Part shown: in pieces, positions 7,521-41,917 of the stretch | Numbering within the stretch: the stretch's first letter is position 1 | How the letters are laid out: the number at the start of each line of letters is the position of its first letter | Origin: a virus | DNA length: 64,000 bases | Strand: one strand, 5' to 3' | Virus record (IMG/VR): IMGVR_UViG_3300028490_000005 | Coordinates: 1 to 64,000 of that record | The notes under the pieces: model-generated | The model's database searches: none | Told to the model about the DNA's origin: nothing | What the model saw: the letters and a program-made list of their open reading frames with translations, nothing else | Made by a program: the position numbers and the translations under genes

Positions 7521-8699
7521 ATGGAGCGATTAATGACATTAGACGAAATATACGAAAAAATAGAAGACGGGTCTATGACCGTCGATGACATCAATACCAT
7601 GGACTTGTCCCACCTCAAGGGAACTAATTTAGACCACATAGAAGGTCGTTCTGCGTATTGGAATACATACCAATTGGCTCTAAAAATTTCAATTAACTCA
7701 TTATATGGTGCACTTGCAAACACTTACTTCTTATTGTTTAATAGGGACGTTGCTGCGTCAATCACAGGAAATGGTAGAATTTTCATTCAAGGTCTTGCAA
7801 ACTATATCAATGACAAACTGAAAAAAGTTCTAAAGTCAAAGAAAGATTTTGTTGTTTACGGAGACACAGATTCAGTTTACTTCACACTCGGTGATCTAGT
7901 AACTAAATTAGATGTAGACACCAATAAAGAAATTCTCGATAAATTGATTAAATTCGATAAGAAATTCCTAGACGTTTGGACCCAAGAATATATAGAAATA
8001 TACGCTGACAACTTCAATGCATTTAATAAGGATCCTATTGGTGCGAAACTTGAAAAGGTCGCGGACAAAGGTATGTTTGTTGCTAAGAAGAAATACGCTC
8101 TAAGAGCAGTTTGGGATGAAGGTGCGATTCTTTTAGATGACCCAAAAATGGCTGTAACTGGTTTAGAAATTGTTAGAAGTTCAACGCCAGCATTTTGTAG
8201 AAAACACCTCAAAGATATGGTTGATGTTATTCTAGATAACGATGCTAAATTTACAATAGATAAATTAACGGGAATTGAAGAATTATTTTTTGAAGCTCCA
8301 ATTCAGGATATAGCTAGAGTTTCTGGTATTGGTTCACTTGCGTATGAGGGTTCAATAGGTAGATACACGAAATGGAAAAATGATAAAACATTAACTGCAC
8401 CAATGAATGTCCGTGCCGCAATGAATTTTAATTTATTTGTACAAGAAACTGGATTAACTAAATACCCTCAAATATTGGATTCAGATAAAATAAAGTATGT
8501 ATTTCTCAAGAAACCAAACACATTGGGTGATGATGTTGTTGCATTCCTAGACGCTGATTTTATCACTGATTCAGGTTTGGAAAAATACATTGATAGAGAG
8601 CGTATGTGGGAAGACTTCTTTATTTCCCCAATGAAAATTATGCTTGAAGCAGTTGGGTATGATTTAAATCAAAACTTTGATATGGAGGAATGGATGTGA
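7521..8699 (+). CDS. 43B: Family B DNA polymerase, C-terminal part (motifs B, C, thumb; gp43B)
   Basis: QLALKISINSLYGA, SITGNGR, YGDTDS, KKKYA, GLEIVRSSTP. Confidence 0.93.
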   Translation: MERLMTLDEIYEKIEDGSMTVDDINTMDLSHLKGTNLDHIEGRSAYWNTYQLALKISINSLYGALANTYFLLFNRDVAASITGNGRIFIQGLANYINDKLKKVLKSKKDFVVYGDTDSVYFTLGDLVTKLDVDTNKEILDKLIKFDKKFLDVWTQEYIEIYADNFNAFNKDPIGAKLEKVADKGMFVAKKKYALRAVWDEGAILLDDPKMAVTGLEIVRSSTPAFCRKHLKDMVDVILDNDAKFTIDKLTGIEELFFEAPIQDIARVSGIGSLAYEGSIGRYTKWKNDKTLTAPMNVRAAMNFNLFVQETGLTKYPQILDSDKIKYVFLKKPNTLGDDVVAFLDADFITDSGLEKYIDRERMWEDFFISPMKIMLEAVGYDLNQNFDMEEWM

Positions 8700-8892
8700 T
8701 AACTGGAATAGCAATTGAATCGTATTTGACAGATGAAGGGAATTTTATAATTGGGAAGAGATATTTCTTCAAACGTTTTCAACCAAATTTCCTCAAAGAT
8801 GATGAATTGGTTTGGAGCACAACTGATGAATATCAACAAGATATGTCATTTACGAGCGAAAAACACATCTTAAAATATTTTAAGGAAATAGA

Positions 8893-9225
8893 ATGACTAA
8901 GAAAGAAAAATTACAAAAGAAATTAGCAAAAATGGAAAGAAAAGAAACTAAGAAGCGTAAAAAATGGGATATGTATTTGGACGCATTTTGTAGTGATTGT
9001 GGTAGTTCTGGTGTATATTATCAATCGGTTGGGCAAGGTGCGATGGCTTATATTAATAGACTTCGATGTAATTGTACATATACACATACAAATCGTTATG
9101 AAAAGGCTCTTAATGCTACTGATATTATGGTCAAGGACTATAATAAAAAACTAAAGAAGTTCAAAGACAATCATTCTCACATCGAAAGTACATTTGGTGA
9201 TGAGTGTGGTCGTTCATGGGATTAA
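8893..9225 (+). CDS. Hypothetical protein with CxxC/CxC
   Basis: ORF track; CSDC...CNC. Confidence 0.55.
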   Translation: MTKKEKLQKKLAKMERKETKKRKKWDMYLDAFCSDCGSSGVYYQSVGQGAMAYINRLRCNCTYTHTNRYEKALNATDIMVKDYNKKLKKFKDNHSHIESTFGDECGRSWD

Positions 9226-9632
9226 AAAACAACAATTCTTTAATGAAATGGGTTGATCTACATGAAGTACGGTCATTCATTGAAAAAATGAATATTCCTA
9301 AAATATATAGACCATGGGGTTACTATTCAATTTTAGAGACTGGTGATAATTTCAAAGTGAAATTAATTCATGTAGATCCAGGAGAGATGACATCTTTACA
9401 GTACCATCTATATAGAACGGAATATTGGGAAGTGTTAAAAGGTGAGGCATTCATCACAAAGGGTGATGTGATATTCAACGCTTCAAGTGGGGATCTGGTA
9501 TCAATTCACGTCAAAGAGCTTCATAGGATAGAAAATAAATCGATACAAGGCATCCAACTTATAGAAATTCAAGTTGGTGAAATTTTAGAAGAAACTGATA
9601 TAATTCGCATTTCTGATAAATATGGGAGATAA
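9204..9632 (+). CDS. Mannose-6-phosphate isomerase type II cupin (ManC C-terminal domain only)
   Basis: RPWGYY, SLQYHLYRTEYW, HRIEN, IEIQVG, DIIRISDKYGR; true start may be slightly downstream. Confidence 0.85.
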   Translation: MWSFMGLKNNNSLMKWVDLHEVRSFIEKMNIPKIYRPWGYYSILETGDNFKVKLIHVDPGEMTSLQYHLYRTEYWEVLKGEAFITKGDVIFNASSGDLVSIHVKELHRIENKSIQGIQLIEIQVGEILEETDIIRISDKYGR

Positions 9633-9634
9633 TA

Positions 9635-10660
9635 ATGAAAATAGCATTTATTACTGGGATCACTGGGCAAGATGGTCAATACCTTTCAGAATTATTAATT
9701 GAAAAAGGTTATGAAGTTCATGGGCTTGTTAGGTATTCTAGTTCTGAATTTGACACAGAACGTATGCACCAAGATGTGAAAATTCATTTAGGCGACATGA
9801 CCGATTCATTACGACTATTTAGTATTTTGAAAGAAGTACAACCAACTGAAATTTATAATCTTGCGGCGATGACACATGTAGGTGTGAGTTTCAACACACC
9901 AAAATATACTTCAGAAGTAAATTCAATGGGTGTGATAAATATCCTTGAATCTATTCGAGTTCTTGGGTTAAACACCAGAATATATCAGGCGTCTACATCG
10001 GAACTATTTGGTAAGGTTATGCAAGTTCCTCAAAGTGAAACGACTCCATTTTATCCAAGAAGTCCCTATGGTGTGTCTAAATTACACGCATATTGGAATA
10101 TAGTCAATTACAGAGAAGCATATGGGATATTTGCTTGTAATGGGATTTTATTTAACCATGAATCACCAATAAGAGGTGAAAACTTTGTAACCAGAAAAAT
10201 TACAAAGGCTATTGCTAAAATGTCATTGGATCAAAGTTGTGTATTAAAGTTAGGCAACCTCAACGCTGAACGCGACTGGGGACATGCAAAGGACTATGTT
10301 TATGCGATGTGGTTAATGTTACAACAACCAGAACCCGAAGATTTCGTAATTGCTTCTGGTAAAAGTCACAGTGTAAGACATTTCTTAGAAACTGCCTTCT
10401 CGGTTGTTGGTGTAAAACTTTCATTTTTAATTGATGATGGTGTAGAAGTAGGTATTGTAAATTCTAGTACCAATGACGCGTTTGTTATTGGGAGAAAAGT
10501 TGTTGAAACAGACGGTCAATTTATCAGACCGTCTGAAGTTGAAACATTATTGGGTGACCCATCAAAGGCTATAAAAATCCTTGGTTGGGAACCAGAATAT
10601 ACATTTGAAGAATTAGTAAATGAAATGATGGAGAAAGATTTAAATGAAATTAGAAAGTAA
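9635..10660 (+). CDS. gmd: GDP-mannose 4,6-dehydratase
   Basis: ITGITGQDG, YNLAA, QASTSELFG, PRSPYGVSK, NHESP, RDWGHA. Confidence 0.96.
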   Translation: MKIAFITGITGQDGQYLSELLIEKGYEVHGLVRYSSSEFDTERMHQDVKIHLGDMTDSLRLFSILKEVQPTEIYNLAAMTHVGVSFNTPKYTSEVNSMGVINILESIRVLGLNTRIYQASTSELFGKVMQVPQSETTPFYPRSPYGVSKLHAYWNIVNYREAYGIFACNGILFNHESPIRGENFVTRKITKAIAKMSLDQSCVLKLGNLNAERDWGHAKDYVYAMWLMLQQPEPEDFVIASGKSHSVRHFLETAFSVVGVKLSFLIDDGVEVGIVNSSTNDAFVIGRKVVETDGQFIRPSEVETLLGDPSKAIKILGWEPEYTFEELVNEMMEKDLNEIRK

Positions 10661-11576
10661 AATTTACATAGCTGGGCATAACGGCTTAGTTGGCTCTGCG
10701 ATTAAGTCTAAATTAATAAATAACGGGTATAATAATATTATAGTTCGTACACATAATGAATTAGATTTAATGAACGCAGAAAAAGTTAGGGAGTTCTTTA
10801 AAAAGGAAAGACCAGATTACGTGTTTCTTGCCGCAGCAAAAGTGGGTGGTATATTGGCCAATTCGGAATACCCCGTTGAGTTTTTGTACAATAACTTACA
10901 AATTCAAAATAACGTGATACATAGTAGTTGGGAATTTGGGGTTAAAAAGCTATTATTTCTTGGAAGCACGTGTATCTATCCAAGAATGTGCCCTCAACCT
11001 ATGAAGGAGAGTTATTTATTAACTTCTGAATTAGAACCAACCAATGAAGCATACGCTATAGCGAAGATCGCTGGTTTGAAACTGTGTGAAAGTTTTAATA
11101 AACAACATGGTACAAATTTCGTATCAGTCATGCCAACAAACTTATATGGGATAAATGATAATTTTGATTTAAAGTCTTCACATGTTTTACCAGCATTAAT
11201 GGTAAAGATTATTGACGCCAAAAAGAACAACACTGACGTTGAAATTTGGGGAGATGGAAGTCCAATTAGGGAATTCTTATTTGTAGATGATATGGCACAA
11301 GCTTGTGTGTTTATTATGGAAACGATAAACTCTGAAGATATGCCTCACTCTTTTGTAAATATTGGTTCTTCGGAAGTGGTATCTATTGCTGAATTAGCTG
11401 AAATAATTAAAGAGGTTGTTGGGTTTAAAGGTGACTTTATTTTTGGGAGTGACACGCTTAACGGTACGCCGATAAAAATGACAGATACATCAGTGCTTTC
11501 AGAACTCGGTTGGGAAAACTCAATGAAATTAAAAGACGGAATTGAATACATATATAAAAATAGGAGTTGGGAATGA
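10644..11576 (+). CDS. fcl: GDP-L-fucose synthase
   Basis: AGHNGLVGSA, AAAKVGGI, GSTCIYP, EPTNEAYAIAK, MPTNLYG, SHVLPAL, REFLFVDD. Confidence 0.96.
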   Translation: MKLESKIYIAGHNGLVGSAIKSKLINNGYNNIIVRTHNELDLMNAEKVREFFKKERPDYVFLAAAKVGGILANSEYPVEFLYNNLQIQNNVIHSSWEFGVKKLLFLGSTCIYPRMCPQPMKESYLLTSELEPTNEAYAIAKIAGLKLCESFNKQHGTNFVSVMPTNLYGINDNFDLKSSHVLPALMVKIIDAKKNNTDVEIWGDGSPIREFLFVDDMAQACVFIMETINSEDMPHSFVNIGSSEVVSIAELAEIIKEVVGFKGDFIFGSDTLNGTPIKMTDTSVLSELGWENSMKLKDGIEYIYKNRSWE

Positions 11577-12085
11577 GATTATACACATTTACACATTACA
11601 TGCTATCACCAATAGCAAAGGGAATACAATCAGGGCACGCAACGACGGAATTATTCGTAAAATACAATGATCCTAAAGAACAAGATACTTCAATCAAAGA
11701 AATTGAAAAAGGTTTAATGGTATTTGATTGGGCAAGAGATCACAAAACCCATATAGCATTAAATGGTGGTACATCACCAGATCTTCAGGAAATAGTAGAT
11801 ATATTAACAGAAATTTGTGATTACCCATGGGCTGATTTCAATGAAGATGAATCCCTCGGTGGTTTGAGAACTAGCATCGCGATGGTTATCCCTGAGAAAA
11901 TATACACCATTGCTGAATTAGTTAGAAATAAAATTCTAATTGATGTTGAATATGGTTATAGAGTTAATTCAGAAGATGATGTAGTTATTTACGACGCTAA
12001 ATTAACTCTGAATAGATTCATTATTTCAGATAAAGATAAAAAATTGATTGACTATATTAACAACTTTAGATTAATGGGAGTTTAA
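11567..12085 (+). CDS. Pth2-like peptidyl-tRNA hydrolase, phage type
   Basis: LSPIAKGIQSGHA, W..HKTHIALNG, FNEDESLGG..TSIA pattern of the PTH2 fold. Confidence 0.6.
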   Translation: MGMRLYTFTHYMLSPIAKGIQSGHATTELFVKYNDPKEQDTSIKEIEKGLMVFDWARDHKTHIALNGGTSPDLQEIVDILTEICDYPWADFNEDESLGGLRTSIAMVIPEKIYTIAELVRNKILIDVEYGYRVNSEDDVVIYDAKLTLNRFIISDKDKKLIDYINNFRLMGV

Positions 12086-13264
12086 ATGAAAACAAAAGAA
12101 GCAGACATACTTTATTGTGGTGTAGACAAAGAAAAGATTAAGAACGCAAATCCGATCTTAAATGAAGAAGTCCTTGGGTATCATCACTCTTACATGACTG
12201 AACGCCATAATATTTATAAGCGTAAAGAAATTGAAAAGTTACCACAAGACGAATGGACTGAAGATGAAGTGTTTAAAAATTATAGGTTCACAAATGTCAG
12301 AAGAGAACTTGACCGTGAGTCAGTGTGGTTAATAGCTCACATTTCAGAAAATCCAAATTTTACCCTTGAAGAAAAAATACTTTGGACTATGTTATTTAGA
12401 ACTTATAATAAATCATCAACTTTCATTAAGCTCGGTTTCCCATTTGATATTGATATTTTGAAATTCGATGATTCTGATAAAGAAAACCTTAGAAAAATCA
12501 TAGAAGACGAAATAGAAAGAGACCCTAAATATGTTTGGTTCACACCCGCATTCAACACTGGTGGTCTCAAGGCTACATGGGCAATGCCTGAAACAAAGGG
12601 TATGTACGAATGTACAAGTTCAAACATAGAAGTTGAAGTTGAGACTGATGACGGTATTGAAAAGATGACTTGGCGTGAAGCTAAAGATCTTCAAAAAGAA
12701 AATCCCAATTATAATATCAAAGGTGTAGAAAAGTCTATGCCTATGCGAATGATTCACTTAATAGACTATGTCAGGAAGACAGATATAGTAGAGCGTATCA
12801 TAAATGCAGAAACTCAAGAAAAGGCTTATGATATTATCAGAGAAATTGACGGGTTTTCCAACTTCTTAGGTTATCAGATATTTGTCGACTTCACTTATAT
12901 AAAAGAATACAAGTTCAGTGAAAACGAATTTACTATTTCCGGACCAGGATGCGACAGAGGACTTGATCTTATGTTTACGGATAAAGATGGAATGGATTCT
13001 TCAGAAGCATTGTTTTGGATTAGAGATAATATTGAAGCAGAGTGGAAGAAACGGGACTTGGAATTTGACGCAGAAGTGTTATTTGACCACCTCGAGCCTG
13101 AAGACCGTTGCATTAACGTGATGATGTTGGAAAATTCATATTGTGAAATCTCAAAATTTGTCAAGGCGAAACGTGGCACAGGAAGACCTCGTAACCGTTA
13201 CCACCCCACAATTGAAAGTGATGTAATTACACCAAATGAATGTTCAATCGACGAGTGGTTATAG
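12086..13264 (+). CDS. Alpha-glutamyl/putrescinyl thymine pyrophosphorylase, clade 1 (amino acid:DNA transferase)
   Basis: ERHNIY, WTEDEVFKNYRFTNVRRELDR, LFRTYN, FLGYQIFVD, GPGCDRGL, ENSYCEISK. Confidence 0.85.
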   Translation: MKTKEADILYCGVDKEKIKNANPILNEEVLGYHHSYMTERHNIYKRKEIEKLPQDEWTEDEVFKNYRFTNVRRELDRESVWLIAHISENPNFTLEEKILWTMLFRTYNKSSTFIKLGFPFDIDILKFDDSDKENLRKIIEDEIERDPKYVWFTPAFNTGGLKATWAMPETKGMYECTSSNIEVEVETDDGIEKMTWREAKDLQKENPNYNIKGVEKSMPMRMIHLIDYVRKTDIVERIINAETQEKAYDIIREIDGFSNFLGYQIFVDFTYIKEYKFSENEFTISGPGCDRGLDLMFTDKDGMDSSEALFWIRDNIEAEWKKRDLEFDAEVLFDHLEPEDRCINVMMLENSYCEISKFVKAKRGTGRPRNRYHPTIESDVITPNECSIDEWL

Positions 13265-13300
13265 TTCGAGGGGCGTTTTTGCGAACTAAGACGTTAAATA
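13263..13300 (+). promoter_or_regulatory. Hairpin followed by putative late promoter TTAAATA
   Basis: TAGTTCG...CGAACTA inverted repeat; TTAAATA at 13294-13300. Confidence 0.45.
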
Positions 13301-13313
13301 CTTTTAAGGAGTA

Positions 13314-14075
13314 TTGATGATCTTAGAAAAACTAAAAGAACTTGGTATAGAAAAACCACAACAATTATCAAGGTTCTTTCAAAAGCATTATAGAACTGGG
13401 AAGATGCCAAAGGGGCGTGAAGAATATTATGAAGAATTGTTGGAAGCTACTAAATGGCTTCCGATAAATTCCTCATATACACATCGTTGGTTTGTTCTTG
13501 AAAACGGGCTTAAGGACTATCCTGAGTGTTGTGAGTGTGGTGAACCGATTATTTGGAGACCACAAGCACCAGATGATATTGACCGTGATGTTTGTGGGAA
13601 GAAATGTTCAGCTATAAAAAGACAGCGTGAATATGTTGATGTTTATAAATTGGCTGCCCAGAAAGGTCATAAGTCCAAAGACCAAAAGGTTATTGGTAAA
13701 AAGATTTCAGAAGCTCGGTTATCATGGGATGATGAGTTTAAGAAAGAATTAACCAAACGTGTTTTGAAGACAAAATATGACAAAGGGATTTATAAAACTG
13801 GTAGATATAAAACAGATTGGCAACATTATAAGTCATTAGTCATTGCAATTACGAGAAAGGTAGATGTAACGCAATTTGAAAACTCTGAAAAAAGAGGGAA
13901 ATGTGGTATTGACGGAGCTTACCAATTAGACCATAAAATTAGCATAGATGAGGGGTTCAAACTTGGTTTGCTGCCATATATTGTTGGGAACTCTGAAAAT
14001 TTACAGATGATTCCTTGGTTAGAAAATTCAAGAAAAAAGGCAAAACCATATAAAGAATGGTTAGAAGGAGCTTAA
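13314..14075 (+). CDS. Putative HNH-type homing endonuclease
   Basis: Cys-rich N-terminal half (CCECG, CGKKC); C-terminal YQLDHKISI...NLQMIPWLEN. Confidence 0.7.
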   Translation: MMILEKLKELGIEKPQQLSRFFQKHYRTGKMPKGREEYYEELLEATKWLPINSSYTHRWFVLENGLKDYPECCECGEPIIWRPQAPDDIDRDVCGKKCSAIKRQREYVDVYKLAAQKGHKSKDQKVIGKKISEARLSWDDEFKKELTKRVLKTKYDKGIYKTGRYKTDWQHYKSLVIAITRKVDVTQFENSEKRGKCGIDGAYQLDHKISIDEGFKLGLLPYIVGNSENLQMIPWLENSRKKAKPYKEWLEGA

Positions 14076-14076
14076 A

Positions 14077-14205
14077 ATGTTAAAAGAAGTTTTAGATAAA
14101 ATAAAAGAAGAAAATATTAGTGATCTTGGTAAAAAGTCATCAAAAACCGTGGATGCGAATAAACCAGTTTTAGACAAAAAGGTTAAAGAAAATGCAGATA
14201 AGTAG
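14077..14205 (+). CDS. 42-aa protein with MLKEVLD leader (not in ORF track)
   Basis: AAGGAG RBS; MLKEVLDKIKEENISDLGKKSSKTVDANKPVLDKKVKENADK. Confidence 0.6.
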   Translation: MLKEVLDKIKEENISDLGKKSSKTVDANKPVLDKKVKENADK

Positions 14206-14276
14206 AGGTACGGGGCGTCCTAGAAATAGATATACCCCAACAGAAGTTCAAGTCTGTGACAATGAGTGTAGTATAG

Positions 14277-14693
14277 ATGAGTGGTTATAGATTAGCTGTC
14301 GTTGGCTCCAGATACTTCGATGATTTTGAATTATTTGTCAAGGTCATGGATCGTTTAAGGTTAGTTAAAGATATTAAGGCTATAATATCAGGTGGAGCAC
14401 GGGGTGCTGACGCCATGGCTGAACATTATGCCGAAGTGAATAAAATACCATTAACAGTATTTGAAGCTGAGTGGGGCAAGTACGGAAAAGGTGCTGGTTA
14501 CATTCGCAACAAAGATATATGGGATGCTTCTGACATGGGTATAGCCTTCTGGGACGGTGAATCTAAGGGAACTGAACATTCATTTGAAATTGCTAGAAAA
14601 CAAAATAAACAATTACTTATATTTAATTATAAAAAGAATAGATGGGTAAATGAAAAAGGAGAAGAAATTGAGCAAATTAGACAAAGTAATTGA
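14277..14693 (+). CDS. SLOG/YspA-like (DUF2493) protein
   Basis: VVGSR, ISGGARGAD, W.KYGKGAGYIRN, FWDGESKGT. Confidence 0.85.
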   Translation: MSGYRLAVVGSRYFDDFELFVKVMDRLRLVKDIKAIISGGARGADAMAEHYAEVNKIPLTVFEAEWGKYGKGAGYIRNKDIWDASDMGIAFWDGESKGTEHSFEIARKQNKQLLIFNYKKNRWVNEKGEEIEQIRQSN

Positions 14694-14916
14694 AACGATT
14701 ATCATTGTAAGAGATGGTAAGTTGGGTGAGGAAGTTCTTCGCAACCCATACCATAGTGCATTTTTCATGAGACAAATGGTTGAGTACGGGTTAGAAGGGT
14801 TTCACATCTCAGTGAAAAGTGGTATTTCAGATGATGAAAAATCAGAGATCATACAAGAAACGATAGATACTTGGGACAATGAACCCACAGAAATTACAGA
14901 CTTATAAGGAAAAATA

Positions 14917-15594
14917 ATGAAAACAGAAAACACAGAAAAGGCGTTTGAAATATTAACATCAGAACAATTTAATGAAATACTAGATGCACAAATGGAACTG
15001 AATGTAAAATATTCAGGAGAAAATTGGGCAAAAGATATTCCTGATTCACATATGCTCGCAGCAGCATTTGCGGAACTTGGAGAACTACTTGAATCTGGAC
15101 CAAGAGTTGGGGATTCAGACCTTAATGGTTGGAAATGGTGGAGAGAGAATTTAGACAATGATGATAATAATTTGAAAGTAGAAGCAGTGGACATTATTCA
15201 CTTCACTTTCTCTTCACTTGCTAAAAAATATAACGATATTGATTTATTGAAAAAGCATTACGCTGAATGTTCTAATGCATACAGAACTTCTCCAAATGCA
15301 CAAAGTGATGGTGAATCAACTGGTGTAGTTTATGATTTACTCCTTTCACTTAGTGTGTTCACTGTCACGTGTTTAATTGAAGACTCAGAAAAAGAGCAAC
15401 TTATGGATATGATGGTATTCCTTGTTAATGGTTTGTGTAGATTTTCAAACATGACAGCTGATGAAATGTTCGAGTTATATGGAAAGAAAAATAAACTAAA
15501 TCACAAAAGAGTTGAGGGTGGGTACAAAACTGGGGACTATGAAAAAGTAGATTCAGACGGAAATGAAGATAACGTAAAACTTTTTGAAGATTAA
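14917..15594 (+). CDS. dut: Dimeric all-alpha dUTPase (dUTPase_2)
   Basis: ELGELLE, WKWW, VEAVDIIHF, KNKLNHKR..GY..GDY.K...EDN. Confidence 0.85.
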   Translation: MKTENTEKAFEILTSEQFNEILDAQMELNVKYSGENWAKDIPDSHMLAAAFAELGELLESGPRVGDSDLNGWKWWRENLDNDDNNLKVEAVDIIHFTFSSLAKKYNDIDLLKKHYAECSNAYRTSPNAQSDGESTGVVYDLLLSLSVFTVTCLIEDSEKEQLMDMMVFLVNGLCRFSNMTADEMFELYGKKNKLNHKRVEGGYKTGDYEKVDSDGNEDNVKLFED

Positions 15595-15652
15595 GCTTGT
15601 TTTAAGTGAACTTACGGTATAATAGAGTATATTAAAATAAAGGTTCAAAATG
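15591..15652 (+). promoter_or_regulatory. Early promoter cassette
   Basis: TTAAGCTTGTTTTAAGTGAACTTACGGTATAAT (-10 at 15618-15623). Confidence 0.8.
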
Positions 15653-15913
15653 GCAAAGTTTTTAGATATAGATGAAGTATTTGTAGCAGAAGGTGATTTA
15701 AGATCAGTTGCGACTGAAGATGGGGAAGCATTCTATCCAGATTTACAGGTGGTTGCAATTGTAGACGATGAATATTTCGCTCACCCAAAAATTTATCCTG
15801 GAGGAGTTGGAGCTTTGGCTGACGCTGAAGACTTTGCGGAAGCTATTGATGACAGAGCTGAGATCAATGCATCCATTTGGGTTAGGGTAGATGAATTCGG
15901 AAGAAGAGCGTAA
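15650..15913 (+). CDS. Highly acidic small early protein
   Basis: Behind the promoter cassette; D/E-rich. Confidence 0.65.
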   Translation: MAKFLDIDEVFVAEGDLRSVATEDGEAFYPDLQVVAIVDDEYFAHPKIYPGGVGALADAEDFAEAIDDRAEINASIWVRVDEFGRRA

Positions 15914-16244
15914 TGAGTTGTTTCTTGTACGCGATCTTGGCAGTAGCAGTTTCATTTTACCTATTGGCAGTTTTTGCCTACTGGATAAGTGAAAATTAAG
16001 TTTAAAATAGTATAATAAAATAAAAAGGTGAAAGAATGAAAAAAGAATTAAATTGGGCATGGCAAACTCCGGAGTACAATTCCCCAACATGGGATAAAGT
16101 TGACTCGGTAATTGATAATGGTTTGGCTACAGCGTTTGACAATAAGGCTGGTAATGCATTAGTGAACATTGTTGATTTCGGTATTATGAAATTAGAACAA
16201 TTTGGTGCTAAATTGGAAAATTACTTCAAAAAAGAAAGTGCTGA

Positions 16245-16774
16245 TGTCTAAAAAGATAATTGCAATTGACGTTGACTTGACTGTCGTAGACTCAGTCACC
16301 CCTTGGAAAGAGTGGTACACTGGTCTCACTGGGCACGATTTAGGTGAAATTACATCTGAAAATAATGACCTCGAAACTATGATGAAAAATCACAATGACC
16401 CTCTTCAATTCTGGCGAAAGCCTGATTTATATGACACTATGCAACCAATACCTGATGCTGTGAAATATATAAAATTGATTAAAGACCTTGGGTTTGAAGT
16501 GATATTCGTATCGGCTTGTATGGCTGAACATGAACAATCTAAGAGGTATTTTCTTCAAAGACATTTCCCTTACGCTGACGGCTTCATTTCTACTGGAGAT
16601 AAATCATATGTAAGATGTGACTATTTTGTTGATGACTATAAAAAGTATTGTAGACAAATGGTTAATAACGCAACAGTGTTCCAAATAATTACCGAATTGA
16701 ATTCTCCTTGTGATGAATTCCCTTATGTTACTTGGAAGGAAATATACGAAGTTATCGTTTCGGAGAATGAGTAG
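16245..16774 (+). CDS. HAD-family 5'(3')-deoxyribonucleotidase
   Basis: IAIDVDLTVVD, IFVSA, YFVDD; start approximate. Confidence 0.8.
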
Positions 16775-17415
16775 TGTGTGGGGTCATTGGTGTTAATATG
16801 AAAGATGTGTCTAAAGAAGATTTAGACACAATCAAACGAGTATTTTTAGAAACTGAAATTAGAGGAAAACACGCAAGTGGTATTGCTTGGTATGACGGTG
16901 AAAAAATTACTTCTCAGAAAGCACCAGTACCCATATCACAATTCATGAAAACATTCGATTTATCTAAATGTTTATATGGAGATAACCAAATAACTCTGAT
17001 AGGGCACATTCGCTACAGTACCTCGGACATAAAGTATAATCAGCCCATAGGTAATGAAGCTGGAAGTTTTATTGTTCATAACGGAGTCGTGACACAATCT
17101 GATCCAGAACATTGGGAAGAACGCTATGGTTATTCTTGTCAGACAAAAAATGATTCAGAACTATTATACCATTGTTTAGAAGAAGGATTGGATATTGAAA
17201 CTAAATTCCCAATGGCTTCATATGCTCTACTTAGGCTTACTAGAGATGGTGAAATTGAATTTGAAAGGAATGGATTACGTCCAATGTGGGAAGCCACTTT
17301 AAGTAATGGTCACATTTTCTCAAGTACAAGAGATATTTTATTCAGATCTGGTGTATCAATTGATTCACTGAAAAGAGTACAAGCCAATAACGACAAACAA
17401 CACAGGACATTCTAA
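16774..17415 (+). CDS. Class II (Ntn) glutamine amidotransferase
   Basis: N-terminal MCG, RGKHASG, GHIRYST, HNG, NDSE. Confidence 0.88.
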   Translation: MCGVIGVNMKDVSKEDLDTIKRVFLETEIRGKHASGIAWYDGEKITSQKAPVPISQFMKTFDLSKCLYGDNQITLIGHIRYSTSDIKYNQPIGNEAGSFIVHNGVVTQSDPEHWEERYGYSCQTKNDSELLYHCLEEGLDIETKFPMASYALLRLTRDGEIEFERNGLRPMWEATLSNGHIFSSTRDILFRSGVSIDSLKRVQANNDKQHRTF

Positions 17416-31996: not shown

Positions 31997-32398
31997 TTGG
32001 GATTAATAGAAAAATTGTTTGATAAATACAATGAGTTTATAAAATTTGAAACCATTGATATTGAAGATAGGCTCAGACGACACACCGAAATCTTGGGCTT
32101 CTATCAATCAACATTTTACACCATGAAACAAAAACATACTAAATATTCATTTGAATTGGATAGACAATGGCAAGAAAAATACCTCTACTATAAAAACGAA
32201 TTCAATATAGTCTTAAACAACAATGAAATTAAGTCCTTTATTGAAAAGGACTTAGAATATTTAGAAATTAAGAGAAAACTTCAAGAAGTGACTGACATTT
32301 TAGAACAAATAGAATTAATCCTGAAAGGGTTGGATTCAATGAGATGGACTATAAAATCTATAATTGATTGGGAAAAATTTAAGGCTGGTCAGTTCTAA
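31997..32398 (+). CDS. uvsY: Recombination mediator UvsY
   Basis: K.LYY, helical body, C-terminal WTIKSIIDWEKFKAG. Confidence 0.75.
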   Translation: MGLIEKLFDKYNEFIKFETIDIEDRLRRHTEILGFYQSTFYTMKQKHTKYSFELDRQWQEKYLYYKNEFNIVLNNNEIKSFIEKDLEYLEIKRKLQEVTDILEQIELILKGLDSMRWTIKSIIDWEKFKAGQF

Positions 32399-32412: not shown

Positions 32413-32427
32413 CAACTAGGAGTTTTA

Positions 32428-32667
32428 ATGTTAAAACAAATCATAGAAAAAATTACAAATGAAGTTATGTGCCCAGAAGCTAGATCTTTTGCATCTAAAT
32501 TGGCAAAGAAGAGTGGTATGGTAACTATTAAGTGTAAAAAGACTGGGGATGAATTTGAAGTTGATTCAGATGCGAGCATTTTAGGTGGTTGGGTTTCAGC
32601 CAAAGGCAGTGATGGTAAATCAACTGATATAGATCTTTGTGGTAATAAAGATTATAAATTCGCATAA
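32428..32667 (+). CDS. Small protein with MLKQIIE leader (candidate internal head protein)
   Basis: Shared N-terminal motif with the neighbouring genes. Confidence 0.6.
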   Translation: MLKQIIEKITNEVMCPEARSFASKLAKKSGMVTIKCKKTGDEFEVDSDASILGGWVSAKGSDGKSTDIDLCGNKDYKFA

Positions 32668-32676
32668 GGTATTGTA

Positions 32677-32937
32677 ATGTTAAAAGAAATCTTAGAAAAA
32701 TCAAATGAAGTGAAAGATAAGAAAGCTTACGAAAAGATTTATAAAGACATCATTGAATACATGGAAGAAGTGATTGCATATAGAGAAAAGATGAAATCTC
32801 GTGGTGATAAATTGGATGAATTATATAAAGAACAAACTGGGAAGTCTATTTTGTTCCAAAGTCTCTATAATGGTAGTGTTATCACTAAAGATGATATTGA
32901 TAATTTGAAAAAATTATCTAAGAAGAGGTTATCGTAA
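32677..32937 (+). CDS. Small protein with MLKEILE leader
   Basis: Shared N-terminal motif. Confidence 0.6.
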   Translation: MLKEILEKSNEVKDKKAYEKIYKDIIEYMEEVIAYREKMKSRGDKLDELYKEQTGKSILFQSLYNGSVITKDDIDNLKKLSKKRLS

Positions 32938-33128
32938 TGTTAAGAGAAATAGTAGAAGCCATTTCTTACGGTAACGTTAAGCAAAGACACGGGGCGTATA
33001 TCTTTCATTTTGATGGAGATACAATTACTATGGTAGATAAAGCTGGTAAGGTGATGGGCACTAAAAAATCCCCTTCTTTAGCATCAGTCCATACTAAAGC
33101 TATGACAAAAGAATTTGGTGGTAAGTAA
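32937..33128 (+). CDS. Small protein with MLREIVE leader
   Basis: Shared N-terminal motif; TAATG coupling. Confidence 0.6.
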   Translation: MLREIVEAISYGNVKQRHGAYIFHFDGDTITMVDKAGKVMGTKKSPSLASVHTKAMTKEFGGK

Positions 33129-33310
33129 TGTTAAGAGAAATAGTAGAGGGTGCAGACTGGGGTGAAGATGCTGAATTAACATTTTCAAAAATCATGAAGA
33201 TAGTTGATGACATTAATTCTAAGATAAGTTCTGCTAAATTAGACGCAAGAACTTACCAAACACTAGAAAAAGCTAAACAAGAGCTTGAGAAAGCGTTAAG
33301 GAGAATGTAA
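33128..33310 (+). CDS. Small protein with MLREIVE leader
   Basis: Shared N-terminal motif; TAATG coupling. Confidence 0.6.
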   Translation: MLREIVEGADWGEDAELTFSKIMKIVDDINSKISSAKLDARTYQTLEKAKQELEKALRRM

Positions 33311-33609
33311 TGATTAGAGAAATAGTAGAAGGGTTGGGATTAGCTTCTGGTTCTAATTATTCGTACTTGAGTGGGAATAAAGATAACCGTCCAACTGGGA
33401 TTTTAGTTCACACAAAAAGTGAGCGTGGTTCAATAAAGATCGCGTCAGAAGTAGAGAAAAGAGGACTTAAGTCTGAAATTCGTGACGGTAAGAAACAAAT
33501 TGAAATATACGCAAGTCATTATAGTGATGAGGAAAAATCTTATTTATCTAATATCATCGCTGGAGATGAATTAGATAAATTAATTAAAAAGATAGAAATA
33601 TTAAACTAA
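33310..33609 (+). CDS. Small protein with MIREIVE leader
   Basis: Shared N-terminal motif; TAATG coupling. Confidence 0.6.
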   Translation: MIREIVEGLGLASGSNYSYLSGNKDNRPTGILVHTKSERGSIKIASEVEKRGLKSEIRDGKKQIEIYASHYSDEEKSYLSNIIAGDELDKLIKKIEILN

Positions 33610-33899: not shown

Positions 33900-33900
33900 A

Positions 33901-34194: not shown

Positions 34195-34200
34195 TCCATA

Positions 34201-34263
34201 TTTAAGCAAGGTTTAAGCCAACTTACGGTATAATAGAGTATAAAGTTTGAAAGGCTTGATATG
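34201..34263 (+). promoter_or_regulatory. Early promoter cassette
   Basis: TTTAAGCAAGGTTTAAGCCAACTTACGGTATAAT. Confidence 0.85.
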
Positions 34264-35421: not shown

Positions 35422-37116
35422 GTGTTAATAAAAGATAGAGATGAAAGTTACTCGATTTTATCATTCGAAAATCACTCAAACAGTGAAGCTATAGAGCTGA
35501 GAGTTAAGCTTATGGATGACTTATCAGTATTTGTTGATGGATATAAATTCAGTCCTAAATTCAGAGCTGGTGTGTGGGACGGAAAGAAATACTACTTCAA
35601 GATGCAAGTAGATATGTCAATGCAAATACCAAAAGGCTTGGCGGAAACTATATCGAAACGGTATGCTCAGCACTTAGATGAACCATATGAACCAATCAAC
35701 AAACCAACACCATACCCAAAGGAAGTTGTCGAAAGTCACATAGAATCATTAAAATTACCATTTGAACCATACGATTATCAAATTGATTCGCTCTATGAAG
35801 TATTAGAAAATCCTAGAAGGATTTTGGTGGCAGCGACTGGTGCGGGTAAATCACTAATAATATACATAATAATGACATTTTTTGAAGCTCAAAATATGAA
35901 AGGATTATTGATTGTTCCAAATGTTGGTTTGGCTGAACAAATGCGGACGGATTTTATAAGTTATGGAATGAGTGATGAAGAAGTAGATAAACGACTTCAT
36001 ACAATATTCGCTGGTAAAGAAAAAACATTCAGAAAACCGATGACAGTAACTACTTGGCAATCAGCCGTCCTTATGGATTCATCACATTTCGATCAATTAA
36101 ATTATGTGATTGTCGATGAAGCTCACCTAGCAACTGGGGAAAGTTTACAAAAATTATTAGCAGTGTCAAGGAATTGTACATATAAAATTGGATTAACTGG
36201 AACTCTACCAAAAACTTATGAAGGTAGGTTCACACTATCAGCTACTCTTGGTAAAAGTGCTAAGATGATTACTCCTCAAGGTTTAATTGAAAGAGGGTTG
36301 GCTACACCAGTTACAATCATTACTGCTTATTTGAATTACAGTATCGCTGATAAAAAGAAAGTTAAGGTATTAAAAAATTACCAAAAGGAAATAAAATTTC
36401 TCGAGGAACATCAAGGTCGTAACGACTTTATTGCCAAACTAGCAATTCAAGCAACCAAGAAATATGGAAATACATTGATGATGTATAGTTCAATTCAACA
36501 TGGAACGAATTTGTTAGGATTTGTCCTTTCCAATAAATTCAACATAGACACACCAACAATTCTAGAAAAGGTTACTCCGAAAAGAGTTGCGGAAGCTAAG
36601 GAAGCTTGTTCAGACGCCGAAGGATTGTTTGTATTGACTAAGCTCACACCAAAGGATATCAAAACTCTGAGTAAATACTATTCAGGCTCCGAAATAACCA
36701 ATATAAAAGTCCTGAGTGATTATCACATATACTTGATAAAAGGAAGTATTGAGGGAGAGGTGAGAAATGAAATCAGGGCATTGTTGGAGAAGGTTGATGA
36801 TGCTATTTTAATTGGTTCAGCACAAACTGTTTCCACTGGTATGAATATTAAGAGATTGCACAACATATTCCTGACAAGCAGTACAAAATCATCGATTAGA
36901 TTGAATCAAACTATTGGACGTGGTATGAGATTACATGGTGAAAAGAAAATGATGAGATTCTTTGACTTTATTGATGATTTTAGTACAAAGACGAAAAGAG
37001 GTAAGGTCACTAACAAAAACTATACTCTGAAACACAGTTATGAAAGATTGAACGAATACCTGGAACACGGGTATCCAATTAAAGAATTAGAAATAAATAT
37101 AAAGGAAGACGATTGA
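35422..37116 (+). CDS. uvsW: UvsW SF2 helicase
   Basis: F.PKFRAGVWDG, PYDYQ, ATGAGKS, VDEAH, GLTGT, STGMNI, QTIGRGMR. Confidence 0.93.
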   Translation: MLIKDRDESYSILSFENHSNSEAIELRVKLMDDLSVFVDGYKFSPKFRAGVWDGKKYYFKMQVDMSMQIPKGLAETISKRYAQHLDEPYEPINKPTPYPKEVVESHIESLKLPFEPYDYQIDSLYEVLENPRRILVAATGAGKSLIIYIIMTFFEAQNMKGLLIVPNVGLAEQMRTDFISYGMSDEEVDKRLHTIFAGKEKTFRKPMTVTTWQSAVLMDSSHFDQLNYVIVDEAHLATGESLQKLLAVSRNCTYKIGLTGTLPKTYEGRFTLSATLGKSAKMITPQGLIERGLATPVTIITAYLNYSIADKKKVKVLKNYQKEIKFLEEHQGRNDFIAKLAIQATKKYGNTLMMYSSIQHGTNLLGFVLSNKFNIDTPTILEKVTPKRVAEAKEACSDAEGLFVLTKLTPKDIKTLSKYYSGSEITNIKVLSDYHIYLIKGSIEGEVRNEIRALLEKVDDAILIGSAQTVSTGMNIKRLHNIFLTSSTKSSIRLNQTIGRGMRLHGEKKMMRFFDFIDDFSTKTKRGKVTNKNYTLKHSYERLNEYLEHGYPIKELEINIKEDD

Positions 37117-37721: not shown

Positions 37722-37762
37722 GGTTATAATATTATAATAACAAATACAAAAGGAGAAATAAA

Positions 37763-38464
37763 TTGTTAAACACACAAACTAGAAAGGGTCTTAAGACCTT
37801 AACAACCGTTGGAAATACTGCTATCGTACGATATCCTTGGACATCTGTACTACAAAAGAATAAATCATTAATTGCTTTCATTAATATGGAAGAATATGGT
37901 GAAGAACCATTTGAGGAATTTGGGTTAGAAAGTATGAGCGAATTCTTAAGCTTAGTCGACTTCTATAACGACCCTGAAATTTCAGAGGAAGATGGTATTA
38001 TATCTATCGAATCTGGTAAATATCACCAAAAATATGGTACTTCTGATTTAGATACTATGAAATCATTTGATGTTAAGATTACTACTCTAGAAAAAATGTC
38101 TGCTGCTCCGGAAGTAATTGCATTCGATATATCACAAGATGAACTTGTTAGATTTAAGAAAATTGCATCTCTTACTAAGGCAACAAACTTAGTTGTTTCT
38201 GGTAACACGGAAGGTGAGAGTACGCTTACAATTTGTAAGTTGGATAGATCTAAGAATATGTCCGATGAGAGTACGTCCGAATTCCCTATGTCAGTATCTA
38301 AAAATATTAATATATCATTTGATGTACAAAACTTCATGAAATTACCAGATAAAACTTATTCAGTTAGTATCAAACAATCAGAAACTACTGGGAATTGTAT
38401 ATCGATTTGGGAAGTAGATGACGAACCAATTAGTATCGTCGTAAGCGTTTCGGATGTTTACTAA
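37763..38464 (+). CDS. 45: Sliding clamp (T4 gp45-like)
   Basis: About 230 aa; T.K.LK.L, EFGL..MSEFLSLV, F..QNFMKL....Y.V.I pattern; next to gp32. Confidence 0.75.
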   Translation: MLNTQTRKGLKTLTTVGNTAIVRYPWTSVLQKNKSLIAFINMEEYGEEPFEEFGLESMSEFLSLVDFYNDPEISEEDGIISIESGKYHQKYGTSDLDTMKSFDVKITTLEKMSAAPEVIAFDISQDELVRFKKIASLTKATNLVVSGNTEGESTLTICKLDRSKNMSDESTSEFPMSVSKNINISFDVQNFMKLPDKTYSVSIKQSETTGNCISIWEVDDEPISIVVSVSDVY

Positions 38465-38486
38465 ATATTGTTAAATATTTGGTAAA

Positions 38487-38508
38487 AAGACCATTTTTAT
38501 GGTCTTTC
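38487..38508 (+). terminator. Hairpin, probable terminator
   Basis: AAAGACCAT-TTTT-ATGGTCTTT inverted repeat. Confidence 0.6.
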
Positions 38509-38554
38509 CACATTAAATAGTAATGTAACTCATAATGGAGGATATCGAAATGTA

Positions 38555-38645
38555 ACGAGAAATACGAAAAAACGAAAAACACGAAAAACGGAAAAGAGTC
38601 ATACGAAAAATACGAAAAATACGAAAAAATACGGAGAAACGAAAA
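38555..38645 (+). repeat. About 10 imperfect ACGAAAA repeats in the gene 32 leader
   Basis: ACGAGAAAT ACGAAAAA ACGAAAAAC ACGAAAA ACGGAAAAG ... ACGAAAAAT ACGAAAAAT ACGAAAAAAT ACGGAGAA ACGAAAA ATG. Confidence 0.9.
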
Positions 38646-39713
38646 ATGGGAAAATATAACTGGGATAACCTGAAAGGAAATTTACAAAAAGGTGTTGGTG
38701 AAAAAACACAAAACGACTTCAATGATCCACGAGAGTGGAAACTACAAAGAGATGAAAATGATAACGGTACAGCAGTAATTAGATTGCTTCCAGGTAAAGG
38801 TGGAGACACTCCTGCAGTAGTACGAGTTTACGAACATTCACTCAGATTCTTCAACAAACAATCAAACAAATATAGATGGTTCATCGAATCTTCCCCATCA
38901 AGTATCAAAAAAGACTGTCCTGTAAGTCAAGCATGGTATGAATTAGGTGATGTTGGTACGGATGAAGCTAAGAAAATGCAAGAAGCATTTAAGCGTTCTA
39001 CAAAATTTGTGTCTAATATTCTTGTGGTGAATGACCCTATGAATCCAGAAAACAATGGTAAAATCTTCTATTGGAAGTACGGTGTTAAATTATTCGATAA
39101 GTTCCAGTCTGTTCTTGAACTAACTGAACAACAAATTAAGGTTGGTAAGAAGCCAATTCAATTATTCGACCCTGAAGACGGTGCTGATATCATACTTGAA
39201 ATAGCAAAAGTTGGTAACTTCTTGAACTATGACGGTACTACAATTGAAACTCCTTCAAGAGCATTCGATACAGACGAAGAAATGGATGAAGCAGTGCTTG
39301 AAAAATGTTTCGACTTAACTGAATTTATCAGCGAAGATTACTACAAACCATACAGTGAATTGAAAAAGAAACTTGCGTGGGTAATTGAAAAGCAACCAAT
39401 CGAATCTTTCTTAATTGAAAATGGTTCACAAGTGATTACTGAACTTTATAAAAAGAATGCATCAACAGACAACTCATCTTCTGAAGATAGAGAAACTTCT
39501 AGTATGCCCAGCACTTCTTATACACCAAAAACTAAAAAAGCTCCAGAGCCCACAGTTGAAGTGAACGAAGATCCTGCAGTAGAGGAAACTCCTGAAGCAG
39601 TTGAAAAGCCAGTAGTAAAGAAGCCAACAGTTGAGAAAAAAGCTACTAAAGCAAAACCTCAAGGTGAAACAGAAGAAGATATGGACATACTAGCAATGCT
39701 AGATGATATGTAA
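38646..39713 (+). CDS. 32: Single-stranded DNA-binding protein gp32
   Basis: DPREWKL..D..DNGTAVIRLLP, CPV, NILVVNDP.NPENNGK, YG.KLFDK; acidic tail. Confidence 0.93.
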   Translation: MGKYNWDNLKGNLQKGVGEKTQNDFNDPREWKLQRDENDNGTAVIRLLPGKGGDTPAVVRVYEHSLRFFNKQSNKYRWFIESSPSSIKKDCPVSQAWYELGDVGTDEAKKMQEAFKRSTKFVSNILVVNDPMNPENNGKIFYWKYGVKLFDKFQSVLELTEQQIKVGKKPIQLFDPEDGADIILEIAKVGNFLNYDGTTIETPSRAFDTDEEMDEAVLEKCFDLTEFISEDYYKPYSELKKKLAWVIEKQPIESFLIENGSQVITELYKKNASTDNSSSEDRETSSMPSTSYTPKTKKAPEPTVEVNEDPAVEETPEAVEKPVVKKPTVEKKATKAKPQGETEEDMDILAMLDDM

Positions 39714-39715
39714 TT

Positions 39716-40516
39716 CTAGACTGACACCAATTTATAACCACAGAACTTAGAACGTCCTTGGTTGTGAATTCGTTTAAAAATTCCTTGGTTTGTGATGTCA
39801 CTATATACTCTACAAGAGTCAATGTATTTGCATGCATTCTTAGGCAGTCCAACATCGACTAAAGTTTCATACATTGCACCCTGAGCGACAATTTCACCAA
39901 GTAAATCATAAATTATTATCTCCCTAGCCATAGGGTTATCGGTGCCAAGTCGTTTTCCTTTTCTAACATTAGACATTTTGTTCTTTGTTTCTTGAGAAAG
40001 AACTTTACCTAAATTTGCTTGTCTTAATTTTTCAAGGTGTTCTTTTGATTTTTGTTTTCCTTTTAATGAATTAGATATTTTTTGACGGTGTTCAGGTGGT
40101 AAATTTTTACCCCTGAACGCAGAGCCATTTTTATATCTAGTTTCATCGGAAGGGTTTCTGTGACCTTCACTTATTCTTTTTCTAGTTTCTTTTGAAAAAA
40201 TTATACCTGATTGGTCGAATCCAGAAGAAGTTTGTTTAGCTTTATTAATGAATTTTTCATTTTTCGCAACATCAAACTTCTCATGTAGGAATATTTCATA
40301 TTCAATTGCAGATTCTCTATCTACAAATGTTTCAATGATAAAATATAAGTATTCTTCTGGGTTTGAAATTTGTCTTTGTTTAAAATTTTTATCAGTTGAA
40401 GAAGTACGGTATTTTGTGATATCGACTTCTGGTTCGATATCACTTGAACGTGCACCTATGTAGTATCTATCAGTTGGTATTTCAAAAACTATATATACAT
40501 AATTATATTTTTTCAT
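39716..40516 (-). mobile_element. GIY-YIG homing endonuclease with NUMOD3 repeats
   Basis: YVY...YYIG, Y.TSS, A.EYE, N; repeated ETR..IS/EH..K.S; the only convincing minus-strand gene. Confidence 0.88.
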
Positions 40517-40822
40517 TTATATCTTCCTATGTGCTATTTATATAGTTATTTAATGATTAAGTTAAAATTAAGAAGTAATAGATATAATAGAGTTTCAAAG
40601 GAGTTAAAATGGAACAAATTCAAGAATCTTTTGATTCAATGAAGTGTGGGATGAAATATTTCATCCTTCAAGAGGGGTCTAGTGTAGAACTAGGTAAATT
40701 TCAAGTCGATGAAAAGACAGATAATGTTATTCTGTTCAGTAACATGAATAAGAAAGTTGAGTTCGGACTTTCGATTTTCAAGGAAGATTTTGGAAATTAT
40801 GAAGTATACAAAATAAAGGAGA

Positions 40823-41917
40823 ATGATTAATATGGTACTAATTGATTTTTCCCATATGTCGATGCGTAACTTATATGTCGCCCTTTCTCAAGCTAGACCG
40901 AGAAAGGTCGAGGGAGAGTACATTACGAGTGAATTCATAACATTTTATTACCACTTGATGCTACAATCTTTGAGACATATATCAGATAAATTTGATAATT
41001 ACGGTGAAATTGTCCTTGCTTTAGATAGTAAGGACAATTGGCGTAAAGATATCTATCCAGAATACAAGGGTCACAGAAAGAAAGATCGTGATAAGAGTGA
41101 AGTGAATTTCAGTGAATTCTTTGAATATGTTGAATCTTTCACTGATGTATTGAATGCTAATTTTCCTTATAAGGTGATACGAGTTCATAGAGCCGAAGCA
41201 GATGATATTATTGGTATTTTAGCTGAAAGATATGCTGATTATGAAAAGGTCATAGCCGTTTCCAGTGATAAAGACTTTAAACAAATCCTTGAAGTTGGTG
41301 CTGAATTATATGACCCAATTAAAAAGGCAAAGATTAGAATGTCCACTGAAGAATTGAAGAAATGGAAAATTGTACACATATTATGTGGTGATTCTGCTGA
41401 TAATATTCCTCATGTTAAAAGAGGTACGGAATTCACGCCAACATTTATTTCATACTTAAAAGAAAATGAAATTCACGTGAAAGACCCAGCAACTTTTAAT
41501 AAATTGACAATATCAGAGAAATTATATTCTGATTTCAATGTTTATAAAGTCAATAAAAAGGGAGAAGTGCTTGATGAATTGGACATATTCAAAGCAACAC
41601 CATTCGGTCCAAAGACGGCTGAAAAGTTTGCAGATGATTTGAAATCAAATCTAAAATTAAATCCTATATATGCGTCTAATTTTAGGCGAAATATGGACTT
41701 GGTATTATTTAGTAAGATACCTCAAGATATTCAAGACACTATCATTAATGATTTTAAGGGTATTGAAGTTCAATATGACCCGAATGGTATTTTCAAGTTT
41801 CTTTCTGAAAACCATTTAAGTCAACAATTAATGAATGTTACTGACTTCTATATAGATTCTAAAAAATCTCAGGATAGAACTTCATCTCCTGCTGAAGCAA
41901 TGGATGAATGGATTTAA
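40823..41917 (+). CDS. rnh: T4-type RNase H / 5' flap nuclease
   Basis: LIDFS, WRKDIYPEYKGHRK, EADDIIG, SSDKDFKQ, GDSADNIP. Confidence 0.92.
   Translation: MINMVLIDFSHMSMRNLYVALSQARPRKVEGEYITSEFITFYYHLMLQSLRHISDKFDNYGEIVLALDSKDNWRKDIYPEYKGHRKKDRDKSEVNFSEFFEYVESFTDVLNANFPYKVIRVHRAEADDIIGILAERYADYEKVIAVSSDKDFKQILEVGAELYDPIKKAKIRMSTEELKKWKIVHILCGDSADNIPHVKRGTEFTPTFISYLKENEIHVKDPATFNKLTISEKLYSDFNVYKVNKKGEVLDELDIFKATPFGPKTAEKFADDLKSNLKLNPIYASNFRRNMDLVLFSKIPQDIQDTIINDFKGIEVQYDPNGIFKFLSENHLSQQLMNVTDFYIDSKKSQDRTSSPAEAMDEWI

Follow-up and report, generated by a model that had tools for sequence, protein, structure and literature searches.

The window analysed here is the first 64 kb of IMG/VR virus record IMGVR_UViG_3300028490_000005, a linear record of 82,337 bp with a CheckV completeness of about 53% (label G000). 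The source is an uncultured, T4-like phage with a replication gene set of the T4 type. The guanine plus cytosine content of the window is 34%; the plus strand holds nearly all genes. Five proteins end in a common peptide of the form [MLI]-x-E-W-[LVIFM]-COOH: the C-terminal half of a family-B DNA polymerase (PolB), a predicted kinase of 5-hydroxymethyldeoxyuridine (5-hmdU) in DNA (HMUDK; formerly aGPT-PPlase clade 1), a predicted amino-acid:DNA transferase (AADT), a fusion of GNAT, amidoligase and predicted 5-hmdU DNA kinase 2 (HMUD2) domains, and a 5'-3' exonuclease of the flap endonuclease (FEN) type (RNase H). The five endings had been listed by a first-pass annotation of the sequence, and all read as it gave them (Table 1).

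Table 1. Genes and shared C-terminal tails of the window, with strand and basis of assignment
Feature	Position	Strand	Basis
gp62-like clamp-loader small subunit	138-575	+	phrog_225, E 3e-16
DnaB-like helicase	1601-2962		Pfam/PHROG
PolB N-half, exonuclease domain and start of polymerase domain	3237-4757	+	PF03104, E 6e-21; PF00136, E 3e-8
Glycosyltransferase	6689-7471		
Two sugar-nucleotide epimerases or dehydratases	in hypermodification cluster		
PolB C-half	7521-8699	+	PF00136, E 1e-20
Tail MEEWM of PolB C-half (..NFDMEEWM)	8682-8696	+	sequence read
HMUDK (predicted kinase)	12086-13264	+	PF18723, E 1.2e-58, 199 bits vs cut-off 25, full length
Tail IDEWL of HMUDK (..ECSIDEWL)	13247-13261	+	sequence read
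MazG-like pyrophosphatase	14917-15594		
PNK-like	16202-16774		
GATase	16774-17415		
AADT (predicted)	17415-18407	+	PF18724, E 2e-16, 60.9 bits vs cut-off 26.2
Tail MLEWF of AADT (..KNTMLEWF)	18390-18404	+	sequence read
GNAT + amidoligase + HMUD2 kinase fusion, 700 residues	18398-20500	+	PF18747 plus GNAT domains; PF18747 at residues 483-679, 29.7 bits vs cut-off 25 (predicted 5-hmdU DNA kinase 2)
Tail MDEWL of the fusion (..VNVMDEWL)	20483-20497	+	sequence read
Thymidylate-synthase-like (TS-like)	22539-23648		
Second helicase	35422-37116		Pfam/PHROG
gp45-type sliding clamp	37763-38464	+	predicted fold
gp32-type single-strand DNA-binding protein	38646-39713	+	phrog_224, E 1e-65
RNase H, FEN-type 5'-3' exonuclease	40823-41917	+	PF02739, E 6e-20
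Tail MDEWI of RNase H (..AEAMDEWI)	41900-41914	+	sequence read
Primase	42539-43549		Pfam/PHROG

In the whole 82,337-bp record, EW[LIVMF] is C-terminal in 5 of 164 open reading frames (ORFs), with 0.056 expected from composition (Poisson P 4e-9). Internal positions are not enriched (12 occurrences in all, 8.7 expected). Six related contigs were compared: G001 (140 kb), G002 (110 kb), G003 (25 kb), G004, L004 and L006. At positions -3/-2, EW ranks first among dipeptides in G000 and G002 and shares first place in G001. G001, structural genes included, has six tail bearers only, all in DNA-transaction families. In four contigs with about 600 ORFs in total, the tail is absent from structural proteins and from enzymes of free nucleotides; in the window the TS-like, MazG-like, GATase and PNK-like proteins, all enzymes of free nucleotides, end without it. 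The first-pass annotation had called the soluble nucleotide enzymes tail-less and had proposed a count of C-termini in the proteome and in relatives; the former is borne out, and the latter gives the excess above, with structural proteins free of the tail.

All orthologues of the five families in the six related contigs retain the tail. Over 25 tails of seven families from seven contigs, Glu and Trp are invariant (25/25); 24 tails have M, L or I at position -5, 20 have D, E or S at -4, and 24 have L, V, I, F or M at -1. In relatives, three family tails, of which one is not among the 25, bear one to three residues beyond the motif, as does T4 gp55. PolB orthologues end in AMEEWI, EMDEWLI and KLEEWF; HMUDK orthologues in SIDEWL, SISEWL and TDEWLKTH; the AADT orthologue in SIEEWV and the AADT paralogues (26% identity) in TLGEWI and QISEWL; stand-alone HMUD2 kinases in GMDEWL (G001), DTEWF (G002) and GMDEWI (G003); five RNase H orthologues in LEEWV, LSEWV, MREWV, LSEWV and LAEWS. 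The 10-18 residues preceding the motif are unrelated between orthologues, in proteins that are 62-84% identical; the linkers of RNase H read DRTSSPAEA, KKMENRNSG, KERHDKKES, SKKTEQGAG, AKKAQETQG and RAKERDSGS. The Glu codon is GAA or GAG, and many codons occur at the hydrophobic positions. One relative (G003) carries the tail on a Dam-like methylase, where KCSIDEWL differs from the NECSIDEWL of the adjoining HMUDK by one residue (K/E). Within the common CSIDEWL, all synonymous sites able to differ do so, Ser being encoded by TCA in one and by AGT in the other. Linker and codons drift while the tail stays; selection therefore acts on the peptide.

The same codon data bear on an origin at the nucleotide level, in which GA(A/G)-TGG is kept for the ATG or GTG that it contains and the preceding codons may form a Shine-Dalgarno sequence for an overlapping gene. 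A possible start or Shine-Dalgarno sequence of the next gene does overlap the tail at three of the five sites (8690/8696, with GGAGGA at 8683-8688; 18398/18404, with GGAG at 18394-18397; 20491/20500). No overlapping gene is present at 13264 or 41917, however, an intergenic spacer follows most orthologous tails, GAA and GAG are both used and flanking codons vary around constant residues, and the Dam-like and HMUDK tails are alike in residues but not in codons. The varying codons, the two sites without overlap and the spacers leave this origin with virtually no probability, and it is ruled out. Overlap of this kind does account for a second candidate motif, the R[SY]W[DE] endings of three ORFs (9217-9225, 11568-11576, 31998-32006), which was rejected because the region of the Trp codon overlaps the ATG of the next gene (xCA-TGG or ATGA).

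The tail of the polymerase lies where T4 has its clamp epitope. Residues 35-385 of the PolB C-half align by phmmer to residues 537-890 of T4 gp43 (898 residues), whose tail, residues 891-898, is ASLDFLFG. As the alignment ends at gp43 residue 890, the seven-residue FDMEEWM stands in place of the T4 tail. In T4 this tail binds gp45; gp33 and gp55 carry the peptide as well, and it can be exchanged between these proteins (PMC2988020, PMC6212786). Cyanophage polymerases end in TLEDFFS or TLESFFA and the polymerase of Vibrio phage phiKT1024 ends in SLDDW, forms that bridge LDFLF and MEEWM. A degenerate DNA scan of T4 for LDFL matched the gp43 and gp55 tails together with many out-of-frame sites (25 matches, 18 in the control).

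A clamp is encoded in the window. Its gene product matches no Pfam or PHROG family, and a PF02916 search of the genome is empty; phmmer against PDB sequences returned matches to internalins only, judged spurious. The AlphaFold2 model has a predicted local distance difference test (pLDDT) score of 86.4, and its top Foldseek matches are RB69 and T4 gp45 (1b77, 6drt, 3u61, 1czd; template modelling score 0.72-0.79), the best of them at 0.76-0.79. On this predicted fold the protein is a gp45-type sliding clamp, its identity being settled by the fold search. Homologues 57-70% identical to it are present in all relatives with a recovered clamp region (G001, G002, G004, L004, L006), and one of them carries PF09116.

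Relatives possess a further bearer, a helical protein of 82-85 residues encoded next to the gp46/gp47 genes and ending in QLDEWI, KMSEWL or NIEEWV. It matches PF16805 (gp33) with E 0.002 and 18.4 bits, below the cut-off of 25. VIA-align places 3tbi_A (T4 gp33) first among 48,161 PDB chains, with Z 5.3 and a root-mean-square deviation of 4.9 over 68 residues, a weak match tied within 1 Z unit with unrelated helical chains; Foldseek and a profile search against PDB sequences gave no match for the 85-residue form. The protein is a putative gp33-like late-transcription coactivator. In its model the tail, residues 75-85, has pLDDT below 50; this is the one tail of the motif that was modelled. The absence of the gene from G000 is due to the contig end, which lies just 5' of gp62. 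A neighbouring protein of 185 residues (phrog_12320) has no EW tail. The bearers are classical clamp clients, namely polymerase, flap nuclease and the putative gp33, together with DNA-modifying enzymes.

Docking on another hub of the replisome (the core of the gp32-type single-strand DNA-binding protein, the helicase-primase or the clamp loader) would keep the coupling to replication and is unlikely. The polymerase tail stands exactly where T4 and RB69 have their clamp epitope, and the gp33-like proteins carry the tail, T4 gp33 binding gp45 through its C-terminus (PMC2988020). In known systems, moreover, the single-strand DNA-binding protein presents its own tail to clients and does not receive theirs. 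The gp32-type protein of the window ends in an acidic tail, ..EDMDILAMLDDM.

The modification enzymes recur in two other lineages, those of Salmonella phage Vi01 and Vibrio phage VPALA. BLASTP relates the catalytic domains of all three lineages to one another (24-40% identity), while the tails are replaced. In Vi01 the tail type is VNLLxxM. The polymerase ends in ..RRVNLLSMMGKKG (VNLLSMMGKKG), the kinase Vi01_130c in ..GSVNLLDRLKKPE (VNLLDRLKKPE), the AADT homologue Vi01_199 in ..TSVNLMSLLKR, the HMUD2 homologue Vi01_196 in ..SSVSLLGLMRKA (VSLLGLMRKA) and the 70-residue protein Vi01_049c in ..DKVNLLSLMRK. The pattern [VIL][NS]L[LM]xx[LM], scanned over 10,001-157,061 of the Vi01 record, has six matches in 45,289 residues, five of which lie 2-4 residues from a C-terminus; as the pattern was derived from four of the tails, the fifth alone is independent. 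Vi01_049c (Vi01 30355-30567) is Cys-rich (CxxC..CPCC) and unannotated, and is a candidate clamp client in a model phage.

In VPALA the ending STAKRLW is common to the kinase, the AADT homologue and a DNA methyltransferase, and a gp33-like protein encoded next to gp32 ends in NTRRLF. The C-part of the VPALA polymerase ends, at 85745-85760 of the record, in ..NAKR followed by TAA, TGG and TAA (AAG AGG TAA TGG TAA); the first TAA may stem from a sequencing error or a recent nonsense mutation, or may be read through. With TTA in its place the protein would end in AKRLW, like the three modification enzymes. In each lineage the enzyme tails appear to have been swapped for the polymerase-type tail of that lineage, a covariation read from C-terminal sequences. 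It bears on a reading of the tail as a tag for sorting, turnover or packaging (a degron, or a replication-compartment or capsid signal) without a replisome partner. Short C-terminal peptides of such size do serve as degrons. This reading is nevertheless very unlikely: the bearers are exactly enzymes of DNA transactions, the position of the tail is homologous to the T4 clamp epitope, and the same set of clients recurs in Vi01 and VPALA with unrelated peptides.

The tail is probably the gp45-clamp-docking peptide of this clade, placed also on enzymes that work on thymine in DNA. Support comes from the position of the polymerase tail, the gp45 fold of the clamp, the conservation in orthologues, the gp33-like bearer and the two other lineages. 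The clamp would be the receptor of the tail, and tethering would matter for modification; base modification is probably hitched to replication. The first-pass annotation had already proposed a clamp-binding peptide with hypermodification enzymes among the clients. The comparative evidence strengthens that proposal, and two side points attached to it fall away. One was that the tail independently indicates action of the GNAT and amidoligase domains on DNA. The tail belongs to the HMUD2 kinase domain. This kinase is a stand-alone tailed protein of 225-241 residues in G001, G002 and G003, and the G001 amidoligase homologue (311 residues) is a separate, tail-less gene ending in ..DLGENF; the motif therefore adds nothing independent on these two domains, which the fusion would co-tether. 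The other was a connection with the start MDEW of the gp62-like protein. That N-terminus (138-155) does read MDEWGI, and [DE]EWGI is kept in G001 (MLEEWGI) and G002 (MLADEWGI), but it is N-terminal, stands in a different context and has no evident connection to the C-terminal motif. T4 gp62 ends in ..LALEW.

In the proposed mechanism a loader of the gp44/62 type would place clamps at primer-template junctions, and the clamps, each with three pockets, would stay on duplex DNA once the fork has passed, as clamps do in T4 late transcription (PMC2988020). The clients would be polymerase, RNase H, the gp33-like protein (in relatives), HMUDK, AADT, the HMUD2 fusion and the Dam-like methyltransferase (in one relative). 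HMUDK, AADT and the HMUD2 fusion would attach to the clamp through their tails, slide and scan with it, and nascent DNA containing 5-hmdU would be phosphorylated and aminoacylated stepwise right behind the fork. A broader rule is favoured by a narrow balance of judgement: DNA-acting kinases, transferases and methylases may each acquire the peptide of their own polymerase, and the three-pocket clamp may act like a moving assembly line, on which nascent DNA is modified before it is seen by host nucleases.

Several points weigh against docking on the clamp. In T4 RNase H the clamp motif is N-terminal and the C-terminal domain binds gp32 (PMC3012046), so the C-terminal position of a tail on RNase H does not by itself mark it as a clamp tail. 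Two weak matches are the basis of the gp33-like assignment, and a search with T4 gp55 found no homologue in G000, G001 or G002. The motif of the VPALA polymerase is reached only by reading through the in-frame TAA. T4 alpha-gt, beta-gt and Dam lack an LDFL tail, so there is no precedent among modifying enzymes within the model phage. A fourth lineage was picked blind from the distant HMUDK representative P0078 (..SDLFDMFT), which led to the relatives G005 and G006; here the HMUDKs end in VNLFDI or VNLFEGF and the polymerases in SVMDWFA or SVMDWFS, which show only a loose likeness, and neither the HMUDK nor the polymerase type of tail occurs on any further ORF of G005 (170 kb). This lineage is ambiguous and is not counted as support. 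A scan with the HMUDK representative P0033 (..SLEEFF) returned no contig of viral origin.

Of the distant HMUDK representatives, 116 have complete C-termini, and about one quarter of these have short aromatic tails (acidic-W, KRLW/KKLF, L-acid-F, xLF), classes drawn after the data had been seen and suggestive only; F or W occurs within the last three residues of 33% of these HMUDKs against a background of 22%, a modest enrichment.

The tail resembles the epitopes of T4/RB69 gp43, gp33 and gp55 (1B8H; PMC2988020) in being a short hydrophobic-acidic peptide at the extreme C-terminus after a variable flexible linker, in being common to polymerase and other clients, and in occurring with an encoded clamp of the gp45 fold. 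It differs from LDFLF in its form, [MLI]xEW[LVIFM] with an invariant Trp, and in its putative clients, which include hypermodification enzymes and a Dam-like methylase, not known as gp45 clients in T4. The nearest parallel on another DNA enzyme is the loop EPEGLDFLFD of T4 DNA ligase (PDB 6DRT), which binds gp45 with a Kd of about 11 uM (PMC6212786) and was found through its likeness to the gp43 tail; a polymerase-type peptide grafted on another DNA enzyme thus suffices for clamp binding. The ligase motif is an internal loop, whereas the present one is terminal and on base-modifying enzymes. As with FEN1 on PCNA, a flap endonuclease carries a putative clamp motif in a disordered C-terminus, and as with DNMT1 on PCNA, a DNA-modifying enzyme would be tied to the clamp and modify new DNA behind the fork (PMC9690074), the tether being predicted here. 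Unlike those PCNA clients, the present ones belong to a phage and concern thymidine hypermodification or adenine methylation, not CpG maintenance. The PCNA-interacting peptide box Qxx[LIM]xx[FY][FY] was considered and rejected: the tails lack both a Gln at -7/-8 and an aromatic pair, and have a single Trp followed by an aliphatic residue. The tails likewise do not fit the bacterial beta-clamp motif QL[SD]LF or QLxLxL, and the clamp is of the two-domain gp45/PCNA type as opposed to the three-domain beta clamp.

The literature searched in full text contains no statement linking hypermodification enzymes to clamp-binding tails. The docking principle is already known; the peptide and the class of putative clients are new here. 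For ViI-type phages the modification level and site choice are described as unknown (PMC6449724), and the literature searched offered no explanation of how hypermodification enzymes cover the genome fast enough against restriction. A clamp tether would be a concrete and testable mechanism, parallel to DNMT1-PCNA in eukaryotes. If it operates, swaps or deletions of the tail in the cultivable phages Vi01 and VPALA should alter modification density. The rule that a protein ends like its own polymerase could pick out DNA-acting proteins among unannotated phage genes.

The thymidine-hypermodification cluster spans about 6.7-24 kb of the window. Its families PF18723, PF18724 and PF18747 are those of the pathway of ViI, M6, SP10 and PhiW-14, which acts post-replicatively on 5-hmdU in DNA (PMC6449724). 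Unlike that pathway, the cluster adds the GNAT/amidoligase fusion, the GATase and genes for sugar nucleotides, and it therefore probably yields another final base. Megablast of 7521-20500 gives no match to cultured phages. The cultured homologues nearest to HMUDK are from ViI-type phages and some Vibrio phages (36-40% identity), with alignments that end before the tail; the Vi01 and VPALA proteins are 39-40% identical to it. The box TGRPRNRY of HMUDK (13175-13198, residues about 364-371) is invariant in four of four orthologues and lies about 20 residues before the tail. Its core GRP is AT-hook-like and may contact the DNA minor groove, and many distant HMUDK representatives stop right after a similar GRPRxxY box. 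The slot 3' of HMUDK is a variable insertion point, holding here an HNH/EndoVII-like ORF (13314-14075) that ends in ..PYKEWLEGA and in G003 the Dam-like methyltransferase (17242-17994; PF02086) with its KCSIDEWL ending. The fusion gene may instead start at TTG 18404 or ATG 18446.

The halves of the family-B polymerase are encoded by two genes that stand about 2.7 kb apart, with other genes in between, the glycosyltransferase included. The closest cultured matches of the polymerase are about 35% identical. Polymerases are split also in Vibrio phages phiKT1024 and VPALA and in cyanophage S-H34. The sole sizeable minus-strand gene is homing-endonuclease-like (39716-40516; phrog_314) and lies between gp32 and RNase H. 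At 32428-33609, five consecutive small ORFs (60-99 residues) share the N-terminal leader ML[KR][EQ]I[IVL]E, and their products are otherwise different.

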